Source: Sedimentisphaerales bacterium (lineage in GTDB: Bacteria; Planctomycetota; Phycisphaerae; Sedimentisphaerales; Anaerobacaceae). From it: a stretch of DNA of 64,000 nt. Below, one piece after another: positions 10,101 to 40,912 of this stretch. The notes under the pieces are model-generated. The model worked only from the letters and a program-made list of their open reading frames with translations. It ran no database searches and was not told where the DNA came from. The position numbers and the translations under genes were made by a program. Where the stretch lies: the NCBI GenBank assembly GCA_049509475.1, contig JBEKZW010000005.1, positions 1 to 64,000 of the forward strand, written 5' to 3'. Each line of letters begins with the position of its first letter. Position 1 is the first letter of the stretch.

Positions 10101-10363
10101 ACCCTTCTAAGATTTTCGATTGCCGATTGTCGATTTCAAAAACCTTGCAGCCAGTGTTCTACAAGCGCAGCCAAGTCATCCAGATTGACTAAGCCGTCGC
10201 CGGTGAGGTCTTCCCCGCCGCAGTAAAGAGTTGAGTCAGCCTGCATCCATTTGTTGCCCATAGCAGCGAAATCAATGAAATTGACATCTTTATCATTATC
10301 AGAATCGCCGACGACAAACTGCCAGGCAAGCTCAGGATGAACAGACCCCGCCCTACGAAATGT

Positions 10364-32977: not shown

Positions 32978-33412
32978 ATGGCGAGGAGCAGGACGTTTCA
33001 GAGGATTGATGGGGGCGGAAGAGTGGAAGCAGAAACTGCGGGGAGAATCGACCTTCTGCGGAGCAGGGCGGGGCTTTTGAGGGGCAAGGACAGCGCCCTG
33101 ATGCAGATGTACCTGAACGGCTCGGGGACATTGGGCCAGATGGCGCGGCTGGCGGGCGTAAATGAGGCGAATGTTGCCAGAAGGATTCACAAATTAGTTC
33201 GCCGGCTTCTGGACGGGCAATACATCACCTGCCTGCGCAGCCGCGACAAATTCAGCGATGAGCAAATCGAAATGGCGAGGGACTATTTTGTCGACGGGCT
33301 GCCTATGAAGGAAATAGCCGACAGGCACGAAACGACGTATTACGAGGTGCGAAAAACGATGCGGAAAATTCAGCGGCTGACAACTGTAACACGGACTCAC
33401 ACGGATCATTAA
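32978..33412 (+). CDS. Small DNA-binding protein with two sigma-70 region-4 / HTH-like segments (putative island regulator)
   Basis: 144 aa. HTH-like segments LGQMARLAGVNEANVARRIHKL and LPMKEIADRHETTYYEVRKTMRKI. Confidence 0.45.
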   Translation: MARSRTFQRIDGGGRVEAETAGRIDLLRSRAGLLRGKDSALMQMYLNGSGTLGQMARLAGVNEANVARRIHKLVRRLLDGQYITCLRSRDKFSDEQIEMARDYFVDGLPMKEIADRHETTYYEVRKTMRKIQRLTTVTRTHTDH

Positions 33413-33532
33413 AGATTGCCAATTTTTGATTGTCGATTGCCGATTTAATTTCGGATTTCGGATTGTAGATTGCAGATTTTAACCACAGGTTTTACAGATT
33501 GCGCGGATAGTTTTTGGTTTTGATGAGGAAAT

Positions 33533-33562
33533 GGATTCCCGCGTTCGCGGGAATGACAAATG
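33533..33562. repeat. Hairpin repeat GGATTCCCGCGTTCGCGGGAATGACAAATG (TTGTCATT family, reverse orientation)
   Basis: Near-perfect palindrome GATTCCCGCG / CGCGGGAATC, related to 638-666. Confidence 0.55.
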
Positions 33563-33599
33563 TTAAACTTTATTTTTAGAAACTATTTGGGATTAAGCG

Positions 33600-34271
33600 A
33601 TGCGTAAATTTTCAGTGGCGAAACAATTCGAGGTGAATCCGCAAAGAAGCGAGCGTGTTACGACGGTGATGCGGATGTTCGGCGTCGGTATCGACCGGCT
33701 CAAAGACCAGCAAACGACGCACAGTTGCGAAGTCGAGGTCAAGGATGGGGACATCGTTTACATAACCGGGCCTTCCGGCGCGGGTAAAAGCGTGCTGCTT
33801 CGTGAAATGCAGGCGGCGGTGGCCGACGACGAGAAAATTATTATCGAGCAGATAGCTTTGCCTTCGGACAAAGCGGCGATTGATTGTGTGGGTGGTTCGA
33901 CAGAGCTCACCACAGGCGGGACGGGGGTTATTGGCGCATTATCGCTGCTGAGCTACGCGGGATTGAGCGACGTGTTTTGTATGCTCAATGCGCCGACGAA
34001 TCTCAGCGAGGGACAGAAATATCGCTTTCGACTGGCTTGTGCGATGGCTTCGGGCAAAAAATTTATCTTCGCAGACGAGTTTTGCAGCAACCTGGACCGC
34101 ATCACCGCGGGCGTAATCGCATACAACGTCCGCAGGTTCGCGAAACACAACGGAGTTACGTTTTTCCTCGCGTCGGCCCACGAGGACATATTGGCGGATT
34201 TGCAGCCGGATGTGCTGGTCGTAAAAAACTTCACGGGAGAGGCGGAAGTCACATATAAAAGTAAAAAGTAA
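33600..34271 (+). CDS. Standalone ABC-type ATPase (nucleotide-binding domain only, no permease partner)
   Basis: Walker A GPSGAGKS, ABC signature-like LSEGQKYR, Walker B FIFADEF, H-loop ASAHED. 223 aa with no TM domain and no adjacent permease. Confidence 0.6.
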   Translation: MRKFSVAKQFEVNPQRSERVTTVMRMFGVGIDRLKDQQTTHSCEVEVKDGDIVYITGPSGAGKSVLLREMQAAVADDEKIIIEQIALPSDKAAIDCVGGSTELTTGGTGVIGALSLLSYAGLSDVFCMLNAPTNLSEGQKYRFRLACAMASGKKFIFADEFCSNLDRITAGVIAYNVRRFAKHNGVTFFLASAHEDILADLQPDVLVVKNFTGEAEVTYKSKK

Positions 34272-34308
34272 AAGGTAAAAAGTAAAAAGGGAAGAGCAAA
34301 AAGCAAAA

Positions 34309-35049
34309 ATGGAAACATGTACCGTAACTAAAAATCTGGGAATTGTCCCCGGTACGAGGGCGGATTATGAATCGCTTTCGCATTATCATTACCGCGAAGG
34401 CCATTCGGGGCCTTGTGTGGCGATTTTCGCACTGAAGGGCAAATTCAGAACAGCGACGAAGCTCGAAACCGTTGGCGTGATTGTTTATTCGATGCCGACA
34501 GCGGGGGCGCAGATGCGAAATGTCGCGACGGGCGGAGTTTTCGCGGGGCTGGAGAGGGGCACGCAGTTGAAACTCATCAACAGGAATATCCGCACAATCA
34601 GCAGGGTGATTATCGAGCCGAGGTTTCGCTCGCTGGGGCTTGCGGTTCGATTAGTCAGAGAAACGATGTTTTTGCTCAATGTCCCCTTCGTCGAGGCGCT
34701 GGCGGTGATGGGCAGGGCGAACCCGTTTTTTGAAAAGGCGGGTATGACCCGATACGATGCACCGATTTCGGCTTCGTGCGTTCGGCTGATTGAGGCGTTC
34801 AGTGCGGTCGGCGTTGATGAGCAGGATTTGATTGACCCGGTAGTTGTGCAGCAAAAGCTCGACAAAGTCTTGTCCGACAAATCAAGTTTTATCGAAAGCG
34901 AAATGACACGATTTCTTCAAAGTTATGGCCAAAGGCGGCTGATGCAGCCCGGCATCGTTCGCACAAGATTCGTCCTCAGCAAACTCACCGACAGGCCCGT
35001 GTATTATCTTTGGAAAAACCCAAACATAGAATTGATTATTGATGATTGA
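34309..35049 (+). CDS. Hypothetical protein, possible GNAT-like acyltransferase fold
   Basis: 246 aa. IIEPRFRSLGLAVRLV resembles GNAT motif A (R/QxxGxG/A). Assignment is weak. Confidence 0.35.
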   Translation: METCTVTKNLGIVPGTRADYESLSHYHYREGHSGPCVAIFALKGKFRTATKLETVGVIVYSMPTAGAQMRNVATGGVFAGLERGTQLKLINRNIRTISRVIIEPRFRSLGLAVRLVRETMFLLNVPFVEALAVMGRANPFFEKAGMTRYDAPISASCVRLIEAFSAVGVDEQDLIDPVVVQQKLDKVLSDKSSFIESEMTRFLQSYGQRRLMQPGIVRTRFVLSKLTDRPVYYLWKNPNIELIIDD

Positions 35050-35711
35050 TTATTGGAAATTTTATGAAGCACATAACACAATCAATCGAATTGAATAAAC
35101 TTGTGGCACATCCGGATAATCCCAACGTGATGAGCGAGGCGACGTTTCGCAAGCTGGTTCGCAATATCGAGCGGACGGGGCTTTATGAGCCGATTGTCGT
35201 CAGGCCGCACCCCCAAAAACAGGACTGCTTCGAGATTATTAATGGCCATCATCGGGTAAAGGCCCTCGAATGGCTGGGGCGTAACGAGGCGGATTGCGTT
35301 GTCTGGGACGTGGACGATGAGCAGACGGCGATTTTGCTGACGACGCTAAATCGTTTGGCGGGTTCGGATACGCTCGCGAAAAAGATTGAACTGCTGAAAA
35401 AACTTACGCAGCGGATGGGGACAGCCCAGCTTGCCAAATTACTGCCTCAGACGGCCAAGCAGATTGAGCGGCTTACTAACCTGAAACTGAATAGTGTCCC
35501 TGTAAAGTTAAACGCCGAGAGTTTCGCTGTTCCGCTTGTGTTTTTTGTGACAAAGCAGCAGCAGGGGGTTATCGAGAATGCAATTGAGGCAGCAGCGTTC
35601 AGCGAACAGCGTACAGCGGACAGGACACAAACGACAAAGGCACAGCGTCGCGCCAGGGCGATTGCGGAAATAGCAGGCCAGTTTATGGAGGGTGAAAGAT
35701 GCCGGATGTAA
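35046..35711 (+). CDS. ParB-like nuclease domain protein
   Basis: ParB/Srx N-terminal domain motifs (LVAHPDNPN...EPIVVRP...IINGHHRVKA). Its ATGA start overlaps the upstream stop. Confidence 0.75.
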   Translation: MIIGNFMKHITQSIELNKLVAHPDNPNVMSEATFRKLVRNIERTGLYEPIVVRPHPQKQDCFEIINGHHRVKALEWLGRNEADCVVWDVDDEQTAILLTTLNRLAGSDTLAKKIELLKKLTQRMGTAQLAKLLPQTAKQIERLTNLKLNSVPVKLNAESFAVPLVFFVTKQQQGVIENAIEAAAFSEQRTADRTQTTKAQRRARAIAEIAGQFMEGERCRM

Positions 35712-36112
35712 AACCACTTACAAAAAAACAACTCGCAGTAATTGAGGATTTGTTTGTGGGCGAGCTTGAGGAGCAGCAGATTTTAGAAAAGCACAAAATT
35801 GACAGGCGGACTTACGATAAATGGCTGGCGGAAGAGAATTTCGCGGGGGAGTTTGACCGGCGAATTAAATCCGCACATCGGCGAGGCGAGCTGATAATCG
35901 CGAGATTCGCTAATGTGGCTGCGGCCAAACTTGTCCAGTTGACTGAATCAGAAAACCAGGAAACCTCTCGCAAGGCCTGTTTGGACGTTATAAATTATCT
36001 CCGGCAAAAAGCCGAACCCGTGTCCGACGACCAGCCTGAAGCTGAGAAATTGCCGGATTTGTCGCCGGAACTCGCAAGTCGGTTATTAGCTGCTCTGGCT
36101 GCGAGCGAATAA
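35699..36112 (+). CDS. Putative phage terminase small subunit-like protein
   Basis: 137 aa. The N-terminus (LTKKQLAVIEDLFVG...) resembles the HTH of Terminase_2-type small subunits. It overlaps the ParB-like gene by 13 bp and lies upstream of the large subunit. Confidence 0.35.
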   Translation: MPDVKPLTKKQLAVIEDLFVGELEEQQILEKHKIDRRTYDKWLAEENFAGEFDRRIKSAHRRGELIIARFANVAAAKLVQLTESENQETSRKACLDVINYLRQKAEPVSDDQPEAEKLPDLSPELASRLLAALAASE

Positions 36113-36749
36113 AAACGAAGGGAGACACTCGCTCATTTAAGGTACGCATAATTTGCCGAGCGGTCTCCCTTGTATCATCATCGCCTTCTTATTATCGCTT
36201 CTTTGAGGCTTCGTGCCTCGCGGACCCGCGGGTCCCCATCACCATCCTCCATAGAAAGTATAAGTCATATTTTTAATAATGCAAAATGGCAGTTCGCAAG
36301 GATTGATAATTGTTTATTGATTATTGATTATTACAGACGACAGGAATGTGATTGATAAGTGTTAATCATCAATAATCACTCTGTGTTTTAATGTCTTAGT
36401 GGTTACGAGGATAGTCACATAATGACTATTTAAGGGGACATTTAAAAATAAAGAAAGAGAGACGCAGGCCCGAAATATCTCGCCCTCACTTTCTTCCAAG
36501 GGGCATCGTCTCTCTTTATGAAAAGCTTTTTGGCACTAACCCCGCACCTATTTTGGAATCACCACAGGTTTCCGCACCCATCGGCACGGCAAATCCGACA
36601 TCCCAAAACAGGTGCGAGGCATTCTTCCACTTAGAATATACGTTTGATTTTTAGGGGCCCAAAATTAATGCAGCGGAAATTTTTTGAGCCGGCGGGCGAT
36701 TGCCGTTATAATCAGACGCTCGGCGAAACAGCCGGAAAGGATACGATTG

Positions 36750-37181
36750 ATGAAAATAGCTATTGGCGCAGACCAGGCAGGGTTCAAATACAAGGAAATC
36801 ATAAAGAAGTTTCTTATCGAGAAGGGGCATACCGTTGACGATTTCGGCACGGATTCGGAAAAGCCGTGCGATTACCCCGATATTATGAGGCCTGTGGCAA
36901 AGGCCGTCGCCGCGGGCAAATACGACCGAGGTATCATACTTGGCGGCTCAGGCAACGGCGAGGCGATGGTCGCCAACAGGGTCAAGGGCGTGCGATGCGC
37001 CTTGTGCTGGGATTTGCGTTCCGCCCGGCTCAGCAGGGCGCACAACGACGCGAATATACTGGCGATGGGCCAGCGTATGATTGCGATTGAGGAAGCCCTC
37101 GAAATCGTTGAGCTTTGGCTCAATACCCCCTTCGATGGCGGCCGACACCTCACCCGCATCCAGAAAATCGACGCGGAATAA
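36750..37181 (+). CDS. rpiB: Ribose-5-phosphate isomerase B (RpiB/LacAB family)
   Basis: 143 aa that matches E. coli RpiB along its whole length as recalled from memory (MKIAIGADQAGF...GILLGGSGNGEAMVANR...NDANILAMGQR...GGRH). Confidence 0.85.
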   Translation: MKIAIGADQAGFKYKEIIKKFLIEKGHTVDDFGTDSEKPCDYPDIMRPVAKAVAAGKYDRGIILGGSGNGEAMVANRVKGVRCALCWDLRSARLSRAHNDANILAMGQRMIAIEEALEIVELWLNTPFDGGRHLTRIQKIDAE

Positions 37182-37248
37182 AGCCGGGTTTAGTTAAGAT
37201 TCAAATTATAAATTTTCAATTTCCACATCTGGAATTCGGAGGCATACT

Positions 37249-38733
37249 ATGACTAACGGTATCATTCTGCCGGCAAATGCGCAGGCCCAAAGTGTTTCCC
37301 ATTTGTATGAGTCGCTGCGGCGGGCAAGGCCGACGACAAAAGACGACATGAAAAACTATATCAAGGTCTTTTTGGGAATCGACGTGCCGGATAAGCGAAT
37401 CTGCCCTGAGCACAACAGTCCCCTCGATTATCTCTGGCACAGTTTTAATTGTGATTTTGCAAATCCGAAACTTGCCAATGCTGATTGCATTGTCTGGGCG
37501 AATCGGGGCGGGGGCAAAACCGACCTTGCGGCTGTGGCGACGCTACTGGACTGCGTCTTCAAGCCGAATTGCCAGGTTCGGATATTAGCCGGCTCAGAGG
37601 AACAGGCGGGCAGAATGTATCAATACCTCACCGCCTTTTTGCGTAAAGGTTACGAGCAGTTGCTTTCGGAGCCAATCAGGAAGACGGGGTGTCGATTTGC
37701 TAATGGTTCGGCTGTTGATGTTCTCACGCAGTCGCAGGCGAGCGTTCGAGGCCAGCACATTCAGAAACTCCGCTGCGATGAGGTTGAGCTTTTTGATAAC
37801 GATGTATTTAATGCCGCGAAATTCACCACTCAAAGTAGTGATGACATAATCGCCGGTATGGAGACAATCAGCACAATGCACAAACCCTACGGCCTTATGC
37901 AAAAGCTCGTTTCCTCAGCGGCCAAAACAAACACTCCCGTTTTCAAATGGTGCGTCTGGGAGACAATTGAGAAATGCACAGACCGGAATTGTTCACAGTG
38001 TTTGCTGTGGGGCGATTGCGCGGGCAGGGCGAAACAGGCAGCAGGGTATTTGAAAATTGACGATTGCATTACGCAGATGCGGCGCAGCAGCAGGGCGGGC
38101 TGGGAAGCCGAGATGCTGTGCCTGAAACCTAATCTCGAAAACGTTGTCTTTGACCAGTTCGACCCGGCTATTCACGTCAGGCCCGTCGAATATGACGCGA
38201 ATTTGCCTTTGTATCGTTCGCTGGATTTTGGGTTTGCCAATCCCTTTGTCTGCCTGTGGATTCAGATCGATAGCGAAGGCGTAGTGCGGGTGATTGATGA
38301 ATACGTACGCTCTCGCGCGACAATCGATGCTCACGCGGCTGAGTTGAAGAGCAGAATCTCTGGAGGTGAGTCGCGAGTCATAGCGACATTTTGCGACCCT
38401 GCCGGTGCGGGAGCAAATGATGTTACCGGCACAAGTGCGGTTCGTGAATTGCGTTCGCTGGGCATAAACGTACGGTATCGCAGAAGCGGCATCGCGGAAG
38501 GTATCGAGTCAATCCGCCGGGCGATACGTGATGGCGCAGGCAAAAGCCGATTTGTTGTCTCACCCAAATGCGCCCGCCTTATCGAGGCCCTGACCTGCTA
38601 TCACTATCCTGATACGCCAACAGGCGACGAATTACCTCTGAAAGACGGCGTTTACGACCACCCTATCGATGCCCTGCGTTATTTCTTCGTAAATTACGAA
38701 CACAATACGCAAACAAGGCATAGGATTTATTGA
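37249..38733 (+). CDS. Phage terminase large subunit-like protein
   Basis: Walker A-like ANRGGGKTD, ATPase coupling DEVELFD, and a C-terminal RNase-H-like nuclease domain (SLDFGFANPFVCLW, FCDPAGAG, DHPIDALRYF). Confidence 0.8.
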   Translation: MTNGIILPANAQAQSVSHLYESLRRARPTTKDDMKNYIKVFLGIDVPDKRICPEHNSPLDYLWHSFNCDFANPKLANADCIVWANRGGGKTDLAAVATLLDCVFKPNCQVRILAGSEEQAGRMYQYLTAFLRKGYEQLLSEPIRKTGCRFANGSAVDVLTQSQASVRGQHIQKLRCDEVELFDNDVFNAAKFTTQSSDDIIAGMETISTMHKPYGLMQKLVSSAAKTNTPVFKWCVWETIEKCTDRNCSQCLLWGDCAGRAKQAAGYLKIDDCITQMRRSSRAGWEAEMLCLKPNLENVVFDQFDPAIHVRPVEYDANLPLYRSLDFGFANPFVCLWIQIDSEGVVRVIDEYVRSRATIDAHAAELKSRISGGESRVIATFCDPAGAGANDVTGTSAVRELRSLGINVRYRRSGIAEGIESIRRAIRDGAGKSRFVVSPKCARLIEALTCYHYPDTPTGDELPLKDGVYDHPIDALRYFFVNYEHNTQTRHRIY

Positions 38734-39559: not shown

Positions 39560-40912
39560 GTGACAATGTTTACCAAGTTTAAAAAAAGTTTGATTATGCT
39601 TTTAATGTTTTCGGGCTTAGTTTTGTACACTGAGCCGGCATATGCCAGAGGCGAAGGAGGCGGCAGTCGAGACGGTGAAATGGGAATGGGGCACTTCAAT
39701 GGTGATGGTGGCCATGGTGGTGGAATGAGCCACTTTAGCGGCGGCGCTATCTGGAACAACAACTTCAGAGGCGTTGGTGTTATTAGTGGGGGCAGCATTG
39801 GTGTCAGAAGCGGCGGTTTCGTAAGTAGTCCTTCCGGCATGAGAAGCGGCGGCTGGAGCAGCGGCAACGGCGGTTCTCAGAGAGATATGGATGTCCATGA
39901 ATCTCATAGCCAAGGTTTTCACAACGACGCCTTTAACAGAGATATGGGCGGCAGGGAATTTAACGGCGGGGAAGGACATGGGCATGTCGGGTTCAGAGAT
40001 TTTGACCATGGCCATGATTTTGACCATGACAGAGGTCACTTCTCCGACCAGGACCGTGATTTCCACCACAACCATTTTTTCTTTAACCCAGTTTTTGACA
40101 GTTTCTTCTTTAACCCATTCTTTGAGACGGGTGTGTTCTATAACCCCTGTTTCAATGGGTATTACTATGGTTCGCCCTGGTACGGCTACTATCCATACTA
40201 CGATTATTACCCTTATGGGTATAGCTATGGCACAGGCGGGAACAGTTATTACAACACGTATAATTACTACACCAACCCGATAGTCGGAACAGAGAATGGT
40301 GCCGGAGCAGCCGGTTCGACGACGTCTGCGGACAATTATTTCAATGAAGGTGTCAGGATGTTCGGGAACGGCAATTTCACCTTCGCAGCGGAGAAGTTCA
40401 AAGCGGCTATGTCGCTTGTACCGCAGGACAAGGTTTTACCTTTTGCTTATGCCCAGGCGGTTTTCGCCAGCGGTGATTACGTTACGGCCGCAACAGCAGT
40501 TCGCGATGCGGTTGCAAGAATCACGCCCGAGACCGAAGGGATTTTTTATCCTCGCAGAATGTATTCGAGCGATGTGGTTCTCCAGCATCAGATAAAAGCG
40601 CTTGCCGGAGCCGTGCAAATGAACGAGAACAATGCGAGCCTGCAGCTTCTGCTTGGATATAATGAGCTTGGGATAGGTGAGCTTGACAAGGCGGAGGCGG
40701 CTTTAAAGATTGCCAGCACTGACCAGGCAAACGGGCCGACAGCAACAGCGCTTCTGAAGCTGGTTGCTAAGCTTCGGACAGCAGGCGCTGAAACACCCAA
40801 GGCCGTAACACAAAAGACGGAGAATACGGCGCCGGGAATTCCAAAGACACAGAATCCGATGACGGAAACTGCGCCGCCGGCAGCACCGAAGGCGGAAACG
40901 CCTGTATACTAA
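39560..40912 (+). CDS. Secreted Gly/His/Asp/Tyr-rich low-complexity protein with C-terminal TPR-like helical domain
   Basis: Signal peptide, GG/HG/DHD/FN repeats (HGHDFDHDRGHFSDQDRDFHHNHF), a Tyr-rich block (YYPYYDYYPYGYSYG), and a C-terminal helical region. Confidence 0.6.
   Translation: MTMFTKFKKSLIMLLMFSGLVLYTEPAYARGEGGGSRDGEMGMGHFNGDGGHGGGMSHFSGGAIWNNNFRGVGVISGGSIGVRSGGFVSSPSGMRSGGWSSGNGGSQRDMDVHESHSQGFHNDAFNRDMGGREFNGGEGHGHVGFRDFDHGHDFDHDRGHFSDQDRDFHHNHFFFNPVFDSFFFNPFFETGVFYNPCFNGYYYGSPWYGYYPYYDYYPYGYSYGTGGNSYYNTYNYYTNPIVGTENGAGAAGSTTSADNYFNEGVRMFGNGNFTFAAEKFKAAMSLVPQDKVLPFAYAQAVFASGDYVTAATAVRDAVARITPETEGIFYPRRMYSSDVVLQHQIKALAGAVQMNENNASLQLLLGYNELGIGELDKAEAALKIASTDQANGPTATALLKLVAKLRTAGAETPKAVTQKTENTAPGIPKTQNPMTETAPPAAPKAETPVY

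Follow-up and report, generated by a model that had tools for sequence, protein, structure and literature searches.

What does an ABC-type ATPase do when it is encoded away from any permease and directly in front of a putative acetyltransferase? The question is raised by a 64,000-nucleotide stretch of DNA from a Sedimentisphaerales bacterium of the phylum Planctomycetota (assembly GCA_049509475.1, contig JBEKZW010000005.1, positions 1 to 64,000 of the forward strand; the whole stretch is called the window here), in which an ABC ATPase of 223 aa (33600-34271, + strand) precedes a GNAT-fold acyltransferase-like protein of 246 aa (34309-35049, + strand). A reading made from the letters of the window, hereafter the original prediction, had found the combination of these two proteins with a ParB-fold neighbour unfamiliar and had proposed a toxin/immunity or anti-phage module. 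The analysis points elsewhere. With high confidence, the pair is a phage-type ABC-GNAT module that lies in the packaging arm of a domesticated phage element. Its biochemical role is a more tentative matter, the acylation of DNA bases being given somewhat less than an even chance. The composite picture, in which a split phage-type ABC-ATPase/GNAT-acyltransferase module works with ParB and packaging genes inside an old, phage-derived and vertically inherited element and does so by that mechanism, is evenly balanced between being right and wrong.

The ATPase consists of a single nucleotide-binding domain with a shortened helical sub-domain. Walker A (G57PSGAGKS64), the LSEGQ signature (L135SEGQ139), Walker B (F155IFADE160) and the H-loop (H194), all of which had been read from the translation before, were located together with a D-loop (S163NLD166), and among 36 and 63 homologues the core residues of each motif show no or almost no variation. 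The canonical order of the motifs, the ABC nucleotide-binding-domain fold and a Pfam ABC_tran match of 44 bits against a cut-off of 25 (E 4e-11) place the protein in the ABC ATPase superfamily. The top sequence and fold matches are transporter nucleotide-binding domains such as FtsE, MetN and LolD, and they speak for the view that the protein is the nucleotide-binding subunit of an ordinary ABC transporter whose permease is encoded elsewhere and whose GNAT neighbour is coincidental. The remaining evidence goes against such a view. The best NCBIfam transporter model scores 57.9 bits, against family cut-offs of 214-517. Judged by alignment offsets, some 29 residues that FtsE has between Walker A and the signature are missing from the protein, and this region presumably corresponds to the helical sub-domain contacting the permease. 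The original prediction had seen no permease nearby; in agreement with it, no ABC permease is encoded within ~9 kb on either side, and neither is a binding protein. The genes found there are ordinary chromosomal ones and encode ArgB/ArgD/ArgF, an AI-2E transporter, a pectinesterase, a radical-SAM enzyme, a thioesterase and an RF-1-domain protein. In addition, fusions of related ABC domains to GNAT and to PolB exist, and the ABC gene pairs with a GNAT-like gene in 66 of 69 genomes and in phages. The protein thus carries neither of the marks of a transporter subunit, a permease nearby or a score above a transporter family cut-off. The transporter reading was rejected on the scores, the lack of a nearby permease, the shortened sub-domain and the fusions; it is effectively refuted and keeps almost no probability. 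The routine transporter domain that the original prediction had set against its own proposal was therefore not what was found.

The GNAT-like protein starts 37 bp after the end of the ABC gene, as had been described, and combines a basic GNAT core (residues 1-152, isoelectric point (pI) 10.1) with an acidic, helical C-terminal domain. Among the profile searches that had been recommended, those with ABC_tran and ParB_N gave scores above cut-off in their respective proteins, whereas the GNAT match in Pfam, to Acetyltransf_10, stayed below threshold (E = 0.069, 13.6 bits vs a cut-off of 23.6). Homologues P0252, P0340 and P0377 barely pass the Acetyltransf_1 cut-off (20.9-21.3 vs 20.7), and no entry in the PDB matches the profile of the protein by sequence. 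Despite the non-significant score of the window protein, the GNAT assignment holds because motif A is conserved and some homologues reach the Acetyltransf_1 cut-off. R107-S-L-G110-L-A112 matches the pyrophosphate-binding loop of motif A (R/Q-x-x-G-x-G/A), whose consensus PR.RGLGLA is kept across 131 diverse cluster representatives of the family. The model of the protein has the GNAT alpha/beta fold, and its closest structural neighbours are the protein N-terminal acetyltransferases RimI and Naa10/Ard1; by sequence, the protein matches phrog_886. The acetyltransferase fold on which the original prediction had staked its interpretation of this reading frame is thus present, even if the Pfam score alone is weak. 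A separate feature of the family is that the alignment of homologues contains variable in-frame insertions at three hot spots, after about residues 33, 43-50 and 186. Identical insert sequences reappear in different homologues (e.g. AEHAENAEKKIVKNNLRG and CHCERSEAISKYSKERDCHGPSNDD), and the inserts look like translated repeat elements.

The relationship between the two families became apparent from gene order. A scan of one genome per species revealed relatives of the GNAT-like protein in 410 genomes; the best 80 of these are metagenome-assembled genomes of Phycisphaerae/Sedimentisphaerales with 50-84% identity, many of them labelled 'Pirellulales' at NCBI and one labelled Aegiribacteria. Gene-order counts were drawn from 78 distinct loci, each representing a species-level genome. 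The ABC gene is located upstream of the GNAT-like gene and on the same strand in 66 of 69 genomes, with at most 150 bp between them in 51 and more than 1 kb in 11. The same arrangement is found in viruses: in 28 of 29 IMG/VR viral contigs the ABC and GNAT-like genes are either fused or follow each other directly, with ABC first, and TerL, the large terminase subunit, is encoded within ~1.5 kb in 21 of the 29. A search with the GNAT-like profile returned 1466 clusters at 50% identity, many of them of proteins of 480-580 aa that match in their C-terminal half. Pfam verified the fusion of an N-terminal ABC to a C-terminal GNAT domain in P0295, P0346, P0377, P0388 and P0344, and the fusion also occurs at loci L098, as one 486-aa protein right after TerL, and L038. 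The most elaborate form is an open reading frame of 1260 aa on a viral contig (IMGVR_UViG_3300037137_000553, L102:6926-10708, + strand) that fuses PolB (exo+pol), ABC and GNAT domains and is surrounded by Prim-Pol (primase), RecA-like and SbcC-like genes. The conserved order and the fusions argue that the pairing is far above chance and that the two proteins are functionally linked. The window thus carries, in split form, an ABC and a GNAT gene encoded side by side and homologous to phage representatives. The co-occurrence analysis that the original prediction had asked for bears out its idea that the solitary ATPase pairs with GNAT and ParB-fold proteins.

The combination is not as unfamiliar as had been thought. 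In the annotation of the Joint Genome Institute (JGI), the window ATPase and its relatives appear as 'ABC-type ATPase with predicted acetyltransferase domain', and in SSU5-type phages the second gene is annotated as 'MK0520 protein, ABC-type ATPase fused to a predicted acetyltransferase domain'. The latter wording we take to be the name of COG2401. Further, an ABC ATPase-coupled GNAT has been predicted to acylate a DNA nucleobase in a phage system, with Tenacibaculum phage pT24 named as an example (Iyer et al., 2021; PMC7824862), a study that cites Iyer et al. (2013) for the GNAT and ABC module. One fused viral relative matches the ABC gene of pT24, the match covering the ABC part only, so the window proteins and pT24 belong to the same broad family. 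A search of the literature for COG2401 or for the ParB/ABC/acetyltransferase/terminase set found nothing, and for SSU5 it found genome descriptions only. The module is thus already catalogued and computationally predicted, and it is experimentally untouched.

An aspect of the locus that the original prediction did not mention changes how the pair is read, namely the presence of the terminase genes TerS and TerL 0.6-2 kb downstream. The pair forms part of a run of co-oriented open reading frames on the + strand (32978-38733) with the order sigma-like helix-turn-helix (HTH) protein, ABC, GNAT, ParB, TerS, (RpiB), TerL. The ParB/Srx-fold protein (35046-35711, + strand; 221 aa) has a TTG start that overlaps the stop codon of the GNAT-like gene; JGI places its start at an ATG at 35064, 14 bp after that stop. 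It matches Pfam ParB_N with 35.1 bits (cut-off 26.3) as well as many PHROG ParB families and ParB-methyltransferase proteins. Conserved residues in 78 sequences are H22-P23, N27, Y47-E48-P49 and G67-x-x-R70-x-x-A73, with G67 kept in at least 98% and R70 and A73 in at least 90%. The last of these is presumably the kind of motif found in nucleotide-binding ParB proteins; together with the ParB N-terminal domain it assigns the protein, as judged from its sequence, to the ParB/Srx superfamily. The gene for the small terminase subunit-like protein TerS (35699-36112, + strand; 137 aa) starts 13 bp before the end of the ParB gene, and its product matches phrog_2538, terminase small subunit (E = 3.5e-9). 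TerL (37249-38733, + strand; 494 aa) is apparently intact, with a Walker A (GGGKT), a Walker B (CDEVE) and the acidic motifs of the nuclease; it matches Terminase_6C (E = 2.3e-9) and phrog_2 (E = 5e-22).

The same set of genes is found in phages. Searches with tblastn gave 28-33 phage records when the window proteins served as queries and 87 when a fused relative did. In SSU5-like phage-plasmids, Pseudomonas Nickievirus, Rhizobium RHEph10-like phages and Stenotrophomonas BUCTxx99, the order is helicase (on the - strand), ParB, ParB, ABC, one or more small open reading frames, GNAT-like, a small open reading frame, TerS-like, TerL and portal; the window ABC is 34-40% identical to the corresponding proteins of SSU5, nickie and RHph, and the GNAT-like protein 22-30%. 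Streptococcus pyogenes prophage 315.4 carries an ArpU regulator, followed at a distance by ParB and ABC and, further on, by TerL and portal, while genes 1-4 of Gordonia phage Sisko encode ParB, an ABC-like protein of 406 aa, a methyltransferase and terminase. Leptospira LE3 has a ParB-like gene, a 366-aa GNAT-annotated gene that matches both the ABC and the GNAT part of the fused query and, further on, TerL and portal. The Burkholderia BcepMu-like phage phiE255 (L122:3426-5158, gp29-gp30) differs in that the ABC-GNAT-type gp29 follows the tail-fibre genes and is itself followed by a formyltransferase gene. In phage Mu, mom occupies a comparable place, at the late end of the genome, and the formyltransferase neighbour of gp29 hints at a donor pathway for formyl or other one-carbon or acyl groups. 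From these gene orders, the stable phage partners of the module are ParB and, most often, terminase. The fusion to PolB and the position in phiE255 point to DNA as the object of the module rather than to packaging as such.

If the module is of phage origin, the question arises of whether the window contains a prophage, the remains of one or an element that the host has retained. The gene order HTH-ABC-GNAT-ParB-TerS-TerL recurs, with host genes inserted between, in the 78 species-level Sedimentisphaerales/Phycisphaerae genomes. ParB lies downstream of the GNAT-like gene in 65 of 65 cases and the HTH gene upstream of ABC in 61 of 62; among the 41 genomes with enough downstream sequence, TerS is present in 39, and TerL was found within 10 kb in 33 of 41. 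TerL is 62-91% identical across genomes. In a comparison with ten close relatives, the ratios of non-synonymous to synonymous substitution (dN/dS) were 0.13 for ABC, 0.18 for the GNAT-like protein, 0.18 for ParB, 0.12 for TerS and 0.07 for TerL, against 0.06 for RpiB, and the synonymous divergence dS was similar between the module genes and RpiB. Protein identities co-vary, with Spearman coefficients of 0.68-0.82 for the pairings that involve TerL or RpiB. In IMG/VR, the window TerL has no relative, and the GNAT-like protein has none that exceeds 43% identity over most of its length. Given the conserved order, the dN/dS values, a dS equal to that of RpiB, the co-variation of identities and the absence from IMG/VR, the gene set looks like a vertically inherited, domesticated phage element under purifying selection. 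An ordinary prophage was rejected on account of the interleaved host genes, the match in dS to RpiB, the lack of any observed integrase or lysis gene and the absence of a close relative from IMG/VR. A decaying remnant of a prophage with no present function would explain why the window has no capsid, portal, tail, integrase or lysis genes and why host genes interrupt the set; it would not explain that all six genes are intact in the 78 genomes with dN/dS values of 0.07-0.18, that the catalytic motifs are invariant or that the base composition of the module is the same as that of its flanks. Such a remnant is accordingly very improbable.

The clearest example of an interleaved host gene is RpiB, the housekeeping ribose-5-phosphate isomerase B (36753-37181, + strand; Pfam LacAB_rpiB, E = 4.5e-57), which sits between TerS and TerL. 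RpiB is found immediately upstream of TerL in about 21 related genomes, with 61-97% identity, and since this order recurs even in distant genomes, the insertion must be old. RpiB is not part of the mechanism and marks a long chromosomal residence. Glycoside hydrolases, a sulfatase, an FAD oxidoreductase and a glucuronyl esterase are also found inserted in the module of relatives.

A scan for promoters and terminators gave nothing above chance within the stretch from ABC to TerS, and no tRNA or Rfam family was found in the window. The last ABC codons and the 37-bp spacer are covered by A-rich, (A/G)GTAAAAA-like repeats (34255-34308). Tandem GATTG(Y)(M)GATT repeats occur just upstream of the ABC gene at 33428-33478 and again at 10118-10135 (6 matches vs 0.29 expected). 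A role as a module-specific site was rejected for the latter sequence because of its second intergenic occurrence, which makes it look like a genome-wide intergenic repeat. The gene at the head of the run encodes a small basic HTH protein of 144 aa (32978-33412, + strand; 33023-33412 and 129 aa according to JGI; pI 10.2) with weak similarity to sigma-70 region 4. It matches Sigma70_r4_2, UPF0122 and Phage_antitermQ weakly, NCBIfam sigma70-ECF with E 3e-6 and phrog_323, a transcriptional regulator, with E 9e-7. The protein is likely to be a regulator of a late or packaging operon; the ArpU gene of prophage 315.4 lies at a comparable position, ~1 kb upstream of ParB-ABC. Downstream of TerL, a 450-aa protein (39560-40912, + strand) combines an N-terminal half of low complexity, rich in Gly, His, Asp, Tyr and Asn, with a C-terminal TPR region; it has no counterpart among 80 related loci at E 1e-5.

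How could an ABC ATPase, a GNAT and a ParB-fold protein act together? According to the proposed mechanism, the ABC domain would dimerise on ATP and serve as an ATP-driven clamp or switch, and this clamp would engage the basic GNAT domain with DNA bound or loaded by ParB. The GNAT would then transfer an acyl group onto a DNA base. The donor would be an acyl-CoA or perhaps an aminoacyl-tRNA; the latter would follow the example of Mom, a GNAT that uses Gly-tRNA to modify adenine in double-stranded DNA. Acylation at or before packaging by the terminase (TerS/TerL) would provide the packaged DNA with a protective or identifying mark. The DNA base as substrate, the donor of the acyl group, the part played by ParB, the tie to packaging and the production of particles are all inferred. 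The evidence is of several kinds. The link to DNA comes from the PolB-ABC-GNAT reading frame, the ParB neighbour in 65 of 65 genomes, the pI of the GNAT core and the position of gp29 in phiE255. The link to packaging comes from TerS and TerL downstream of the pair in the window, in phages and in IMG/VR contigs. Catalytic competence is predicted from the invariant ABC motifs, the conserved motif A of the GNAT and the dN/dS values of 0.13 and 0.18. Precedents for single elements of the mechanism are Mom, the phage ParB homologues that activate DNA thymine dioxygenases, and ABC nucleotide-binding domains that work for soluble enzymes, such as PhnK/L and MCR A2, which occur among the structural neighbours of the window ABC.

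Several observations weigh against DNA acylation in a packaging setting. The module is not accompanied by a conserved reader of modified bases or restriction partner, and the literature yields no experiment on any of its members, only computational prediction. The structural model of the GNAT-like protein reaches only moderate confidence (pLDDT 72), and the other four models lie at 48-56. No portal, capsid or tail gene was found in the window, in the 8.5 kb to its left or in the 6.6 kb to its right, so that the production of particles by this genome is only a possibility. Finally, the adjacency to terminase could equally mean a role in packaging and not in modification. The alternative that follows from this last point is that the DNA stays unmodified: the GNAT would acetylate terminase, portal, capsid, ParB or a host nucleoid protein, or would be a non-catalytic adaptor, while the ABC ATPase and ParB would help to recognise or condense DNA or hand it to the terminase. 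The top structural neighbours of the GNAT, being protein N-terminal acetyltransferases, fit this alternative, and so do the persistence of terminase, which is the most persistent neighbour across unrelated phages, the ability of ParB-fold proteins to load onto and bind DNA, and the possibility that an ABC dimer acts as a clamp. Set against the PolB fusion and the position in phiE255, it is regarded as unlikely, although with an appreciable share of the probability, in both its protein-acetylation and its packaging-accessory form.

DNA acylation also has to be weighed against the anti-phage or toxin/immunity function of the original prediction. If the pair worked in such a way, the ABC and GNAT proteins, perhaps together with ParB, would detect or poison invading phage; alternatively, the GNAT would be a toxin that a partner restrains. 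ParB-fold proteins are known in defence contexts, and the ABC protein partially matches mad3 in PADLOC (E 5e-14), although the match is limited to the generic C-terminal half of the ABC domain and the GNAT-like protein has no PADLOC match at all. The MADS defence system is defined by the mandatory presence of MAD6, MAD7 and MAD8; in a PADLOC search of seven module and flanking proteins these were absent, save for a weak match of the N-terminal P-loop of the ABC protein to mad8. MADS or any other known defence system was rejected because the matches are generic ABC/P-loop matches only and the GNAT-like protein has none. Pairs of the TacT/AtaT type consist of a small GNAT toxin and an adjacent small antitoxin gene. 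No match to this type was found for the pair in PADLOC, Pfam or NCBIfam, and a GNAT toxin-antitoxin system was rejected, as the neighbours are ABC and ParB and no small, antitoxin-like open reading frame is conserved alongside the pair across the 78 loci.

A further point in favour of a defence role comes from genes inserted in the module of relatives. DNA- or nucleotide-related cargo lies within the module at L010:10829-14429, L032:10851-14451, L006:10781-11950, L035:7790-9124 and L066:7074-8808. The gap between GNAT and ParB may hold an SPL-like radical-SAM enzyme and an MmeI/Eco57I-type N6-methylase, and the gap between ABC and GNAT a P-loop kinase fused to dCMP deaminase or two DUF488 genes with DuOB; HNH-type genes are likewise among the insertions. 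The gaps behave like cargo hotspots, and such restriction-modification and DNA- or nucleotide-modification genes would suggest a hotspot for conflict genes. However, the trio of ParB, ABC and GNAT is a fixed part of lytic and temperate phage genomes, where it lies beside terminase. Defence systems are also patchy in their distribution, whereas the trio is conserved vertically across the order at a single syntenic position. A defence or toxin function is therefore improbable; with a terminase-side phage location, a generic partial match to mad3 and no antitoxin-like partner, the support for this part of the original prediction is weak. On the contig of the window itself, about 5-7 kb to the left of the window start and ~40 kb from the module (L127:14017-15808), there is a trio of two DUF488 genes and DuOB, the same as that inside the L066 module, adjoined by a DUF4238 protein and a methyltransferase.

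Do structural genes accompany the module elsewhere in the order? A sub-clade of the relatives (L034, L037, L039, L041, L042, L045, L046, L048, L050, L051, L116 and others) carries a portal-capsid-tail operon, for example at L034:109-3455 (- strand), L042:3-7092 (- strand) and L116:7785-19616 (+ strand), all of them outside the window. This operon is oriented divergently and lies 3-8 kb from the HTH gene, with host genes such as a PfkB kinase in between. It encodes a portal protein (phrog_64, E 8e-25; SPP1_portal), a 174-aa protein beside it, a SU10-type major capsid protein (PF17236, E 8e-88) and about 10 further proteins, which include Gp80-domain, Laminin_G_3 and tail-spike-like beta-helix proteins. 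Beta-helix enzymes are widespread in these polysaccharide degraders, which makes the tail-spike assignment uncertain. In the 120 closest clusters listed, the capsid protein never departs from a length of 384 aa and is 87-100% identical; only two IMG/VR contigs carry it. In the capsid-bearing genomes, the identity of the neighbouring module genes to their counterparts in the window is only 50-60%.

One mark of a gene transfer agent (GTA) is that head and packaging genes of phage origin are fixed in a lineage, inherited vertically and kept under purifying selection. The gene set shows this mark, with its order retained in 78 species-level genomes and the portal-capsid-tail arm next to it in a sub-clade. 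A GTA is further marked by structural genes in the same genome, particles that package host DNA and transfer to recipients; the phage-derived element may be a GTA-like particle system. To our knowledge, no described GTA carries a ParB/ABC/GNAT module and none has been described in Planctomycetota; the literature search likewise found no description of a GTA-like system in this phylum or of this chromosomal setting of the module. What appears to be new is the setting: a split module, fixed across a planctomycete order, sits in a phage-derived packaging arm, and part of the order has a capsid arm alongside. An order-wide chromosomal module with terminase and, in part, a capsid arm points to a domesticated particle system; no such system is known from this phylum. 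The fullest version of the proposal, an order-wide, vertically inherited GTA-like system in which an ATP-dependent, ParB-guided GNAT puts a novel acyl mark on packaged DNA, is doubtful and is given only a small chance.

The set of ParB, ABC and GNAT, which neighbours terminase in phages of Proteobacteria, Firmicutes, Actinobacteria, Spirochaetes and Planctomycetota, is among the more widespread phage gene sets of untested function. Should it prove to acylate DNA, this would be a new phage DNA-modification chemistry and an ATP-dependent route, also new, for bringing a base to a GNAT, with possible uses in restriction evasion and DNA labelling, and the window pair would be the enzyme of a new DNA base modification shared with many phages. 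If the order-wide, GTA-like reading is true, the system would be the first of its kind in Planctomycetota. The chromosomal version of the module would provide a genetically stable setting for studying its function.

The locus can be compared with several known systems. RcGTA-type GTAs share with it phage head and packaging genes that are fixed in a bacterial lineage, inherited vertically, under purifying selection and split into loci among host genes; the Sedimentisphaerales element differs from them in being known from its genes alone, with the structural genes absent from the window. ABC ATPases that serve soluble enzyme complexes and not transport are exemplified by PhnK/PhnL of carbon-phosphorus lyase, component A2 of methyl-CoM reductase activation and ABCE1, although their partners and pathways are unrelated to those of the window ABC and no specific sequence relationship exists. 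TmcA/NAT10 is an RNA cytidine N4-acetyltransferase with an ATPase domain and a GNAT. Like the proposed mechanism, it pairs an NTPase with a GNAT so that a nucleic-acid base is acylated in an ATP-dependent manner, but its P-loop is of the helicase type and not ABC, its substrate is RNA and the homology does not go beyond the folds. Mom of phage Mu has the GNAT fold and acts on adenine N6 in double-stranded DNA; it has no detectable sequence similarity to the GNAT-like protein of the window and, unlike the window pair, no ATPase or ParB partner. A partnership between ParB and DNA modification is provided by the DNA thymine dioxygenases of phages (5mYOX), for whose activation a phage ParB homologue is required and among whose commonest neighbours are ParB and terminase (PNAS 2026; PMC13229309); here the modifying enzyme is an Fe/2-oxoglutarate dioxygenase and not a GNAT, and there is no ABC ATPase. 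The closest counterpart is the phage set of ParB, ABC and GNAT, which has the same two protein families, the same partners (ParB, TerS and TerL) and the same neighbourhood as the window. The window differs from it in that the pair is split in two genes and a single ParB gene is placed after the pair and not before it, and in that the set resides on a bacterial chromosome, where it has been inherited vertically across an order with host genes interleaved.

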